NCBI GenBank assembly: GCA_046533775.1 | Contig: JAWDOO010000001.1 | Location: 30,001-62,000 of the forward strand | Direction: 5' to 3' | DNA length: 32,000 bases | DNA from: Candidatus Nanopusillus sp. | GTDB taxonomy: Archaea; Nanobdellota; Nanobdellia; Nanobdellales; Nanobdellaceae | Shown here: positions 12,501 to 25,287 of the stretch, piece by piece | Numbering within the stretch: position 1 is the stretch's first letter | Layout: every line of letters starts with the position of its first letter | Translations under genes and position numbers: made by a program | Notes under the pieces: model-generated | Seen by the model: only the letters and a program-made list of their open reading frames with translations | The model's database searches: none | Told to the model about the DNA's origin: nothing

Positions 12501-12950
12501 ATGGAGTCTATAGATTTTGAAGCTGAAAGTACAAATGGAAAAATAAAGTTGAGTGATATATTAAAGGAAAAAGATTTTGTAGTTGTATATTTTTATCCAA
12601 AGGCATTTACTAGTGGATGTACACAAGAATTAAAGAGGTTTGTAGAATTATATGAAGAATTTAAAAAATATAATACAGAAATAATTGGAATAAGTAATGA
12701 TAAATTAGATACACAGAAAAAGTTTGCTGAAAAATATGGTGCAAAATTTCCTTTAGTTGCAGATCCTGAATTAAAGGTAATAAAATTATTTAATGCGAAA
12801 AGTGATAGGGGAAAAGGAGCAAGTAGAATTACTTTCATAATAGATAAAAATTTAAAGATTGTTGAAACATTAAAATCATTAAAAAATGCTGCAGAACATG
12901 CTGATAAAGCTCTAGAAAAAATTAAGGAATTACATAGTAAAGGCCTTTAA
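12501..12950 (+). CDS. bcp: Peroxiredoxin, Bcp-type (thiol peroxidase, AhpC/TSA family)
   Basis: The motif VVVYFYPKAFTSGCTQELKRF carries the peroxidatic Cys. I place the start at ATG 12501 (MESIDFEAES...), which gives a normal Bcp N-terminus. The ORF-track start at 12345 is a TTG that adds 52 hydrophobic residues. Confidence 0.8.
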   Translation: MESIDFEAESTNGKIKLSDILKEKDFVVVYFYPKAFTSGCTQELKRFVELYEEFKKYNTEIIGISNDKLDTQKKFAEKYGAKFPLVADPELKVIKLFNAKSDRGKGASRITFIIDKNLKIVETLKSLKNAAEHADKALEKIKELHSKGL

Positions 12951-13057
12951 ATCTAATTATTTTTCTTATTTCTTATTATTTCTTTTTCTAGTTCTAGCAC
13001 AACCCATATTTAATTATAAATTTTGGATAATATAAACTTTTCTAATAATATCTGATA

Positions 13058-23696: not shown

Positions 23697-24299
23697 ATGT
23701 CACCACAAAATAATTATAAATTAACTGATAAGGCTACAATAAGAAATCTTGAAAGTATATTAAAAATACTTGATAATGAAAAACCAGTATTAATAGGTGG
23801 AATAGCTGTAGCTGCATATGCAAATTATTATAATATAAATTATGATAGAAAAACTGGAGATATAGATTTTATAATAAATGAAAATAAAAAGATAGATACA
23901 AAAGAAATAATATATAAAGAATTATCAAACATATCTATTAAAGAAGGACAAATATTTGGATATGATGGAATTGAAATTAAATATAGAGATGGTCCTAGCA
24001 TAAGTATATTATTTAAAGATAAAAAAGTTCCATATAATAAAATAGAACTAAAAATAGGAAAAAGGAAAATAAAATTATATATTGCTAAGATGGAATATCT
24101 TTTAGTAGATAAAATATTTACTTATTTAGATAGAAGAGAAGAAAAAGACCTTAGAGATATAGAAATACTATCTTATTTAATGAAAAAATATGGCTATAAT
24201 AAAGAATTACTTTATGAAATATTTGATGAATATTCTAAAAAATATAGAAAATATTCTTTCGAAGCTAAGGGTATTATAGAAAACAAATTATCAGCGTAG
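23697..24299 (+). CDS. Minimal nucleotidyltransferase-fold protein, AbiEii/MNT-like (orphan)
   Basis: 200 aa. The segment VLIGGIAVAAYANYYNINYDRKTGDIDFII has the GG...(R)xxGDxD layout of pol-beta-superfamily NTases, as seen in AbiEii-type toxins. The C-terminal LLVDKIFTYLDRREEKDLRDIEILSYL resembles the AbiEii C-terminal K..a...R....D.yD motif. Confidence 0.5.
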   Translation: MSPQNNYKLTDKATIRNLESILKILDNEKPVLIGGIAVAAYANYYNINYDRKTGDIDFIINENKKIDTKEIIYKELSNISIKEGQIFGYDGIEIKYRDGPSISILFKDKKVPYNKIELKIGKRKIKLYIAKMEYLLVDKIFTYLDRREEKDLRDIEILSYLMKKYGYNKELLYEIFDEYSKKYRKYSFEAKGIIENKLSA

Positions 24300-24340
24300 C
24301 CGTATTCATCATTTTTCAGTTTCAAGCCAACCACATCATT
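24291..24340 (-). ncRNA. Archaeal C/D box sRNA (2'-O-methylation guide)
   Basis: Minus strand: A-AUGAUGU (C, 24339-24333) GGUUGGCUUGAAA (13-nt guide) CUGA (D', 24319-24316) AAA AUGAUGA (C', 24312-24306) AUACGGCUACG (11-nt guide) CUGA (D, 24294-24291). Box order, box sequences, the 3-nt D'-C' linker, the roughly 12-nt guides and the roughly 50-nt size all fit the archaeal consensus. Confidence 0.8.
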
Positions 24341-24345
24341 ATTCT

Positions 24346-24397
24346 CCCCTACCTGGAGGAACTGGTTCATATATCCCCAGTGCATGGCAGGTAGGGA
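24346..24397 (-). ncRNA. GC-rich bipartite hairpin of unknown function (H/ACA-like geometry); strand assignment tentative
   Basis: The lower stem pairs 24347-24355 (ccctacctg) with 24388-24396 (caggtaggg), 9 bp, plus a U-G pair on the minus strand. There is an internal loop of 5 and 6 nt. The upper stem pairs 24361-24365 (actgg) with 24377-24381 (ccagt) around an 11-nt loop. On the minus strand the stem is followed by AGA-AUA and then box C of the sRNA. Confidence 0.45.
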
Positions 24398-24456
24398 TAA
24401 AATTATAATATTTTTATGATTTAAAATTTTTATATCACAAAGTTTTTGAAATATAA

Positions 24457-25287
24457 ATGAATGATATTATTGAGGAATATAAAGTATGGTTAGAAATACA
24501 GGGAAAATCTAAAAATACAATAAAAACATATTTTGGTATAGTAAAGAAATTTTTAGAATTTCTAATAAATAATGGAATAATTATTGTAGATACAAAATCT
24601 ATTAATGATTCATTAGATAAAAATCTAATTCTAAAATTTTTAGCTGAAATAAAGGTTAAGAAAAAACTAGATTCTAATTCGTTAAGGTTATACGTTAGAG
24701 CTATATCTTCATTCTTAAAATTTTTAGATAATGAAAATCTAGCAAAGCAAATAAAAGCTCCAAAAGTAGATAAAAGATTGCCAAAATTTATTACATATGA
24801 TGAATTAAATAAATTATTAGAAAATGCAGATAATTATAGAGATAAACTAATTATTAAATTTCTATTTTATACTGGGGTAAGGGTTTCTGAATTAATAAAA
24901 ATAAAAAAGAATGATATAATTTTTGAAGAGGGTTTTGTAAAAGTATATGGAAAGGGTGGAAAAGAAAGGATAGTACCAATACCAAAAGAATTACTAAATG
25001 AATTGAAAGATTATATAAATAAAATAAATACTGAAAATATATTTCCATTATCATCAAGACAGGTAGAAAGAATTATAAAAAATATTGCAGAAAAGGCTGG
25101 AATAAATAAAAAAGTAACTCCACATGTATTAAGACATTCTCTTGCAACAACATTATTATCAAAAGGTGTTGATATAAGATATATACAAGAAATACTTGGA
25201 CATAGTTCATTAAATATTACACAAATATATACTCATGTTGTTCCAAACCAATTAAAAGAAATATATAATAAAGTTTTTGAAAGCTAA
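24457..25287 (+). CDS. xerA: Tyrosine recombinase XerA (XerC/D-like)
   Basis: 276 aa. An N-terminal SAM-like core-binding domain is followed by the catalytic residues: YTGVRVSEL (Arg), HVLRHSLAT (HxxR) and LGHSSLNITQIYTHV (His, Tyr). Confidence 0.8.
   Translation: MNDIIEEYKVWLEIQGKSKNTIKTYFGIVKKFLEFLINNGIIIVDTKSINDSLDKNLILKFLAEIKVKKKLDSNSLRLYVRAISSFLKFLDNENLAKQIKAPKVDKRLPKFITYDELNKLLENADNYRDKLIIKFLFYTGVRVSELIKIKKNDIIFEEGFVKVYGKGGKERIVPIPKELLNELKDYINKINTENIFPLSSRQVERIIKNIAEKAGINKKVTPHVLRHSLATTLLSKGVDIRYIQEILGHSSLNITQIYTHVVPNQLKEIYNKVFES

Follow-up and report, generated by a model that had tools for sequence, protein, structure and literature searches.

A predicted box H/ACA guide for 16S U1013 directly upstream of a box C/D sRNA in Candidatus Nanopusillus

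What is the role of a GC-rich hairpin that lies immediately upstream of a box C/D small RNA (sRNA) in an AT-rich archaeal genome? The hairpin was found in a stretch of 32,000 nucleotides from Candidatus Nanopusillus sp., a tiny symbiont from hot springs (assembly GCA_046533775.1, contig JAWDOO010000001.1, positions 30,001-62,000 of the forward strand), hereafter the window, whose own numbering is used for all positions. The source genome (0.59 Mb in 20 contigs, 90% complete) has a GC content of 23.6%, against 45% in the hairpin region. As the rRNAs of this genome reach 57-60% GC, such GC-rich islands mark structured RNAs here. An earlier note on this DNA had attributed H/ACA-like dimensions to the hairpin and had suggested that it forms a composite guide RNA with the C/D unit. 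Our analysis indicates that positions 24343-24397 of the minus strand most likely encode a single-hairpin box H/ACA guide for U1013 of the 16S rRNA, which is predicted to share one promoter with the downstream C/D sRNA.

A conserved hairpin and its predicted target in 16S rRNA

Folding of the minus strand with RNAfold recovered the two-tier, GC-rich hairpin (-22.9 kcal/mol for the hairpin alone, z = -2.1), whose stems, pocket and loop agreed base for base with the earlier description. The hairpin combines the parts required of the H/ACA class, namely a lower stem of about 8-10 bp, a pocket of 5-11 nt per strand and an upper stem, and its 6/5-nt pocket belongs to the common '65' type. The dimensions ascribed to it also held, the ANA box being located 15 nt from the closing pair of the upper stem, or 14 nt if a C.U layer is counted with that stem; both distances are within the archaeal H/ACA rule of 14-15 nt. 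The apical loop follows the pattern GGA-N5-UGAA, generalized to G-GA-N4-6-(A)U-GA-A across 50 distinct sequences, and displays at the sequence level the tandem sheared G.A pairs of a kink-loop (K-loop), the binding site of L7Ae. Since a loose H/ACA descriptor alone gave about one hit per locally shuffled genome, we placed the weight on conservation, covariation and the rRNA match and not on shape.

The whole 120-nt unit was present in 17 related genomes at 75-100% identity, and an exact-pattern scan detected the locus in 17 GTDB species genomes and 49 metagenome contigs, the relatives bearing the genus names Nanopusillus, Nanobsidianus, Nanoclepta and Nanobdella. A search of 151 Nanoarchaeia genomes with a covariance model of the hairpin gave matches confined to the order Nanoarchaeales. 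Compensatory base changes, which the earlier note had pointed to as a check on the structure, were found in an alignment of 16 sequences of relatives: 97.1% of the stem cells are paired, and five pairs show compensatory changes (UA/CG, AU/GC, CG/AU/UA, GC/AU and UA/AU). The covariation score was reached by none of 500 shuffles, control structures slid along the alignment were only 28-61% paired, and RNAalifold independently predicted both helices. The structure of the hairpin thus goes far beyond chance. Ten cells of the alignment are G-U pairs, which are possible only on minus-strand RNA.

Variation is also unevenly distributed within the hairpin. Neither the pocket strands nor the GGA and AUGAA of the K-loop vary at all, while the filler of the loop differs in both sequence and length among the relatives, a pattern that would be expected of guide sequences and of an L7Ae-bound K-loop. 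That the GGA...UGAA core never varies speaks for the proposal that the apical loop is a K-loop. In 50 distinct homologues the ANA column reads AGA, ACA or AUA, always directly after the stem: AGA in most Nanopusillus, ACA in four other lineages, in some Nanopusillus-like contigs and in Nanoarchaeum equitans, and AUA in Nanobdella. Because relatives show ACA in this column, the AGA triplet can be read, as had been proposed, as an ANA box whose usual form is ACA.

A strict search for a target, which required two unpaired bases and pairing right up to the upper stem, revealed no convincing candidate. When the rules were relaxed by a 1-nt offset or a 1-nt spacer, a site surfaced around U1013 of the 16S rRNA, 5'-GGAGG-U-GCAUGGC-3', which is the best match of the pocket in the 16S and 23S rRNAs. 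The pairing comprises 12 contiguous Watson-Crick pairs (5 + 7), or 11 (5 + 6) with the standard U and N unpaired, and 12 pairs or more were obtained with 4 of 1000 shuffled pockets of equal composition. The target stretch does not vary among five Nanoarchaeales. Its U1013 is the counterpart of E. coli U1052, a residue of helix 34 adjacent to the A site. The bipartite complementarity that had been suggested as a check, with the two pocket strands flanking an unpaired U, is thus found at this site.

The same region is the target of a known archaeal guide. In Pyrococcus abyssi, Pab19, which shows activity in vitro, guides the formation of pseudouridine at 16S U1017, in a 5'-UGC-3' of the A-site segment (PMC2377435). 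The triplet at the present target is U1013-G1014-C1015 and, because it corresponds to the 5'-UGC-3' of Muller et al., U1013 is very probably the site guided by Pyrococcus Pab19. Comparison of the two guides, like that with Pab21 below, relies on published descriptions. Like the hairpin studied here, Pab19 (Pfu19/Pho19) is a single hairpin directed at the U of GGAGG-U-GC-AUGG in 16S helix 34 (PMC2377435, PMC4652768), with an unusual register, three stacked G.A pairs and, in the original model, a short GA stem (PMC4652768). It differs in its very large pocket, with a 15-nt 5' strand, in an extra 5' stem-loop and in having no reported C/D partner, whereas the pocket of the present guide is a compact 6/5. 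The shared site suggests that guided pseudouridylation of 16S helix 34 is common to Thermococcales and Nanoarchaeota.

A predicted orthologue in N. equitans (427538-427599, plus strand), which was a weak hit of the covariance model, provides strong independent support for the H/ACA reading. This stand-alone hairpin has unrelated stem sequences and the same pocket (UGCCAUGG / UCCUCC), together with a K-loop of the form GA-N8-GA and an ACA box; a TTTAAA box lies 18 nt upstream, and the hairpin is followed by a UUUGUUU terminator. With its G.U pair it adopts the canonical 10/5/9 geometry, with 10 layers to the K-loop. The hairpin is absent from the available text of Additional file 2 of Randau 2012 (PMC3491384), and that paper names only one N. 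equitans H/ACA sRNA, of 159 nt and with two hairpins.

The proteins that such a guide would need are encoded in the genome, with the exception of one that escaped detection. Cbf5, with its DKCLD, TruB_N, TruB_C_2 and PUA domains, Nop10 and L7Ae were all identified. Gar1 was not detected with the Pfam model, and the same model also missed it in 40 relatives, including N. equitans, and in a Sulfolobus control. Since the model fails in all 41 Nanoarchaeia searched as well as in the control, the non-detection says little.

Several other observations count against an H/ACA guide for U1013. The register of the pairing is not that of the textbook, since either no more than one target base is left unpaired, or the guide leaves a base unpaired on both sides of the upper stem. 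From the pocket to the second G.A pair, the stack has 8 layers (5 Watson-Crick and 3 G.A), or 9 with the C.U mismatch, whereas every crystal structure and almost all P. abyssi folds that are productive have 10 (PMC4652768); a stack of 8-9 is inside the natural range of 8-11, yet short of 10. This short stack above the pocket is the main structural deviation of the hairpin. No Rfam H/ACA family matched positions 24150-24550, either at the gathering threshold or at E values up to 10, and the only matches obtained up to E = 10 were to C/D families, below their gathering scores. In P. abyssi, the pseudouridine at the equivalent site was unreadable owing to a reverse transcription pause (PMC2377435), and a literature search for small-RNA or transcript data from Nanopusillus returned nothing usable.

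A probable composite unit with the C/D sRNA

Immediately 3' of the hairpin, the minus strand carries a complete C/D sRNA, with boxes C, D', C' and D in order and two guides complementary to rRNA (Table 1), so that the locus has the organization of a composite guide; fibrillarin and Nop5 are encoded in the genome. This part scores 33.8 bits (E = 1.9e-5) against the Rfam family snoPyro_CD, whose gathering score of 45 it does not reach. The D' guide forms 12 bp with the 16S rRNA, its fifth position corresponding to A1376 (E. coli A1408, helix 44), and the D guide points to G1461 (E. coli 1508, in helix 45) through 9 bp, or alternatively to G546 through 8 bp. Across relatives, position 5 of box C covaries with position 2 of box D (U.U, A.A or G-C), giving the combinations AUGAUGU with CUGA, AUGAAGA with CAGA and AUGGGGA with CCGA, which supports the existence of a real C/D kink-turn (K-turn). 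This covariation could represent the 3b.3n signature of the K-turn, and could help to detect C/D sRNAs in these genomes.

Table 1. Coordinates of the features of the locus (positions in the window) and of the other two H/ACA hairpins of the genome
Feature	Position	Strand	Basis or remark
AbiEii-like nucleotidyltransferase (NTase) gene	23697-24299	plus	Pfam PF08843, 26.6 bits; between P0 and the sRNA locus
T-rich trailer UAAUUUGUUUUC	24279-24290	minus	likely archaeal oligo-T terminator; T runs after box D in most relatives
Box C/D sRNA	24291-24339	minus	AUGAUGU-13 nt-CUGA-AAA-AUGAUGA-11 nt-CUGA
Box D CUGA	24291-24294	minus	sequence
D guide, 11 nt	24295-24305	minus	sequence
Box C' AUGAUGA	24306-24312	minus	sequence
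Box D' CUGA	24316-24319	minus	sequence
D' guide, 13 nt	24320-24332	minus	sequence
Box C AUGAUGU	24333-24339	minus	sequence
Spacer AUA, 3 nt, ANA box to box C	24340-24342	minus	sequence
ANA box AGA	24343-24345	minus	directly 3' of the 10-bp lower stem
Predicted H/ACA guide hairpin	24346-24397	minus	sequence, fold, covariation, rRNA target
Lower stem UCCCUACCUG / CAGGUAGGGG	24388-24397 with 24346-24355	minus	9 Watson-Crick pairs and one U-G, 10 bp
3' pocket strand UCCUC	24356-24360	minus	sequence
Upper stem ACUGG / CCAGU, 5 bp	24377-24381 with 24361-24365	minus	sequence, fold
Apical K-loop GGAUAUAUGAA, 11 nt	24366-24376	minus	sequence
5' pocket strand CCAUGC	24382-24387	minus	sequence
TTTAAA, putative box-A/TATA-like promoter element	24420-24425	minus	kept by most relatives and by the N. 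equitans orthologue
Second H/ACA hairpin GCCCCUACUA...UAGUAGGGGU, K-loop AGAUAGAUGAAA, ACA	contig C9:12895-12949 (unit 12895-12999)	plus	descriptor
Third H/ACA hairpin, ACA	contig C4:44135-44193	minus	canonical geometry (8 bp + 2 G.A)

In all 65 complete homologous loci, the C/D sRNA begins 2-6 nt after the ANA box. The TTTAAA element precedes UAUCCC by 20 nt, which is about 21 nt from the hairpin, and box A is located 26 nt upstream of the start in N. equitans (PMC3491384); its position and this spacing rule place the predicted transcription start near A24398, at the hairpin foot. The element is present only upstream of the hairpin. From this single upstream TTTAAA, the lack of room for a second promoter and the T run after box D, we infer with good confidence that the H/ACA hairpin and the C/D sRNA are co-transcribed, although T runs are weak evidence for a terminator in an AT-rich genome. 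The suggestion that both units belong to one transcript of about 110 nt is therefore retained, with a predicted common promoter and a predicted common T-rich terminator. An internal promoter in the AUAUAU of the K-loop was considered and rejected, as the motif is not conserved in relatives.

Such a composite had been called unusual, a qualification that should be softened, since the same design is published for Thermococcales (PMC2241582, PMC2377435) and Sulfolobales (PMC2651775). In snoR9 (RF00065; Pab21/Pf1 + sR9), as here, a 5' H/ACA unit is followed by a complete 3' C/D sRNA on one strand (PMC2241582, PMC2377435), and Pab21 exists in vivo in two forms, with and without the C/D motif (PMC2377435). 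Pab21, unlike the present guide, targets 16S U891. The guides thus differ and, as positions 24150-24550 gave no RF00065 match at E values up to 10, the fusion is analogous to snoR9 and of independent origin, and the locus lies outside that Rfam family. In Sulfolobales, the H/ACA sRNAs Sso1, Sto1 and Sac1 are likewise 'directly flanked' on the 3' side by a C/D sRNA (Sso-159, sR4 and sR39), and Northern blots revealed a common transcript of ~120 nt together with a short H/ACA form (PMC2651775). These RNAs differ from the present one in having a K-turn, in targeting U35 of pre-tRNA-Tyr and in carrying C/D guides to the 23S rRNA (PMC2651775), while all three guides of the present unit are directed to the 16S rRNA. 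The composite H/ACA and C/D design is already known; the present locus combines it with different guides. A more distant parallel is offered by eukaryotic composite small Cajal body-specific RNAs (scaRNAs) such as U85, in which one RNA combines C/D and H/ACA domains, but there the H/ACA domain is nested inside the C/D termini, as opposed to the tandem arrangement found here, and no homology is implied.

The origin of the present fusion can be placed relative to N. equitans. The C/D unit is orthologous to N. equitans sRNA13, with the same D' guide; according to the published survey and its supplement, sRNA13 is predicted to direct 16S Am1373, is highly expressed, with 45100 reads, and has its own promoter and terminator (PMC3491384). 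In N. equitans, the hairpin and sRNA13 are two separately promoted genes ~109 kb apart, whereas they are fused in Nanopusillaceae. The fusion arose after the split from N. equitans. The locus hence provides a dated example of the origin of a composite guide, from separate genes to units lying 2-6 nt apart in every Nanopusillaceae locus examined. It also adds an unannotated H/ACA guide to Nanopusillaceae, a lineage for which we found no description of such guides.

Some relatives show further variation in the C/D part. In one of them (G013, L025:1136-1209), a third module, UGAUGAG-AUACGGCUACG-CAGA, follows box D of the C/D unit. The D guide of this relative and of another (G019) is AGGAGGUGAGUG, as in N. 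equitans sRNA13, and the Nanopusillus D guide AUACGGCUACG seems to have replaced AGGAGGUGAGUG through loss of the middle module. At its very start, the short contig C35 of G019 (L024:14-49) holds part of the C/D sRNA in inverted orientation, immediately before the hairpin; this copy is possibly an assembly artefact. Among the C/D candidates, AUGAUGN is combined with CUGA in 7 of 7 cases, and AUGAAGA with CAGA in 4 of 7.

Predicted mode of action and alternative readings

The unit most likely works in the following way, the transcript ends, protein binding, modifications and mature form all being predicted. L7Ae would bind the apical K-loop, and Cbf5-Nop10 would clamp the lower stem, with the PUA domain placed on the AGA (ANA) box. 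The pocket strands would then pair with the 16S rRNA on either side of U1013 in helix 34, allowing Cbf5 to isomerise this residue to pseudouridine, while the C/D guides would aim 2'-O-methylation at 16S A1376 and probably at G1461. The primary product would be a transcript of ~110 nt whose three guides all address the decoding region of the small subunit. Judging from Sso1 and Pab21, this RNA probably exists both as a long H/ACA and C/D form and as trimmed single guides.

The long form might instead be the functional end product, that is, one stable bifunctional RNA of ~110 nt with an H/ACA ribonucleoprotein (RNP) and a C/D RNP side by side, which is not normally cut. We regard this as a real possibility, although we stop short of favoring it. 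The ANA box and box C are only 2-6 nt apart in the 50 distinct sequences, and 2-3 nt apart in the second composite of the genome described below; because of this spacing, there would be little room for an endonuclease between two bound RNPs. The Northern blots of S. solfataricus (PMC2651775) and P. abyssi (PMC2377435) did reveal long H/ACA and C/D forms, but the same blots also contained short H/ACA-only forms. Stable linkage of the two guides also has to be reconciled with their existence as separate genes in N. equitans and with the lack of conserved pairing between the spacer and the 3' trailer, no conserved terminal stem having been found by inspection of the relatives by eye. A further step, which we advance more tentatively, is that the Cbf5 and fibrillarin RNPs, 3 nt apart on this stable RNA, form a single particle, and that the H/ACA guides of Nanopusillaceae are no longer independent genes. 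One pseudouridine and two 2'-O-methyl groups would then be delivered to the 16S decoding centre (E. coli positions 1052, 1408 and 1508) by a single particle, an archaeal tandem counterpart of the eukaryotic composite scaRNAs.

If the hairpin had lost its guide function, it could act only as an L7Ae-binding module that stabilizes or processes the C/D sRNA as a 5' cap. No other part of it is as well conserved as the K-loop, the GA stem falls short of the 10 layers of productive folds (PMC4652768), and ACA is replaced by AGA in Nanopusillus, all of which would suit such a module. We nevertheless consider this improbable, since a mere cap leaves unexplained the complementarity of the invariant pocket strands to an invariant rRNA site around a U, the constant position of the ANA box and the N. 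equitans hairpin, which stands alone with its own promoter and terminator and without a C/D unit.

The earlier note had also raised the possibility of a 3'-end structure of the NTase mRNA or of a protein-binding site, with xerA starting nearby. In such readings the palindrome would act as DNA or through the plus strand, either by ending or terminating the NTase mRNA or by binding the XerA recombinase. The plus strand does fold into a mirror hairpin (-24.2 kcal/mol), and xerA is the divergent neighbor in all Nanopusillaceae loci examined. However, the 10 G-U cells of the alignment would turn into C.A mismatches if the plus strand or a cruciform were the functional form, and the mRNA 3'-end function is refuted by five relatives that keep the hairpin without the NTase gene. 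As for XerA, the N. equitans copy has no xerA in the surrounding 3 kb, and the 9-bp arms, separated by 34 nt, do not resemble the 11-6-11 architecture of archaeal dif sites. The ANA box and the rRNA match likewise speak against a recombinase site, and we judge this whole group of explanations very unlikely. The evidence as a whole thus favors a guide RNA directed at U1013 and made from the minus strand.

Neighboring genes and other H/ACA hairpins of the genome

Between the sRNA start and the ATG of xerA (24457), the region 24420-24457 includes the palindromic AAAATTTTAAAT. This palindrome could serve as a bidirectional TATA element shared with the divergent xerA, which would leave xerA a leader of ~10 nt, and TTTAAA itself, also palindromic, could likewise serve xerA. 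On the other side of the locus, the stop codon of the NTase gene is overlapped in antisense by box D of the C/D sRNA. This gene is variable: besides its absence from the five relatives mentioned above, it is duplicated in one (L013) and fragmentary in two (L009 and L018).

Application of the H/ACA descriptor to the genome revealed three hairpins outside tRNAs and rRNAs, including the one studied here (Table 1). The second is followed, 2 nt after its ACA, by a complete C/D sRNA, and is conserved in the genus with compensatory changes. Its pocket gives a flush 11-pair match with 23S UAACUC-UG-ACCCU, at U1986, which corresponds to E. coli 1917 in helix 69. Another genus (G015) has the C/D sRNA of this second composite without the hairpin.

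The third hairpin is followed, 5 nt after its ACA, by a tRNA read as tRNA-Ser(GGA), and stands alone in Nanobdella and in genus G015. Under strict rules it gave no clean rRNA or tRNA target; its best rRNA match, an imperfect one, is at 23S U2559 (E. coli 2504). The second and third hairpins are both conserved and both directed at classic pseudouridine sites, 1917 and, less cleanly, 2504. If these assignments are true, the three hairpins would constitute a minimal guided pseudouridine set, comprising 16S 1052, 23S 1917 and, less cleanly, 23S 2504 in the peptidyl-transferase centre. All three hairpins are 5' modules in this genome, two of C/D sRNAs and one of tRNA-Ser.

A match to RNase P RNA was also detected on contig C13 (11995-12232, plus strand), covering the full model; its 68.7 bits do not reach the Rfam gathering score, which is 84. 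In contrast to N. equitans, the source organism seems to keep RNase P, which would allow the release of the tRNA-fused H/ACA unit.

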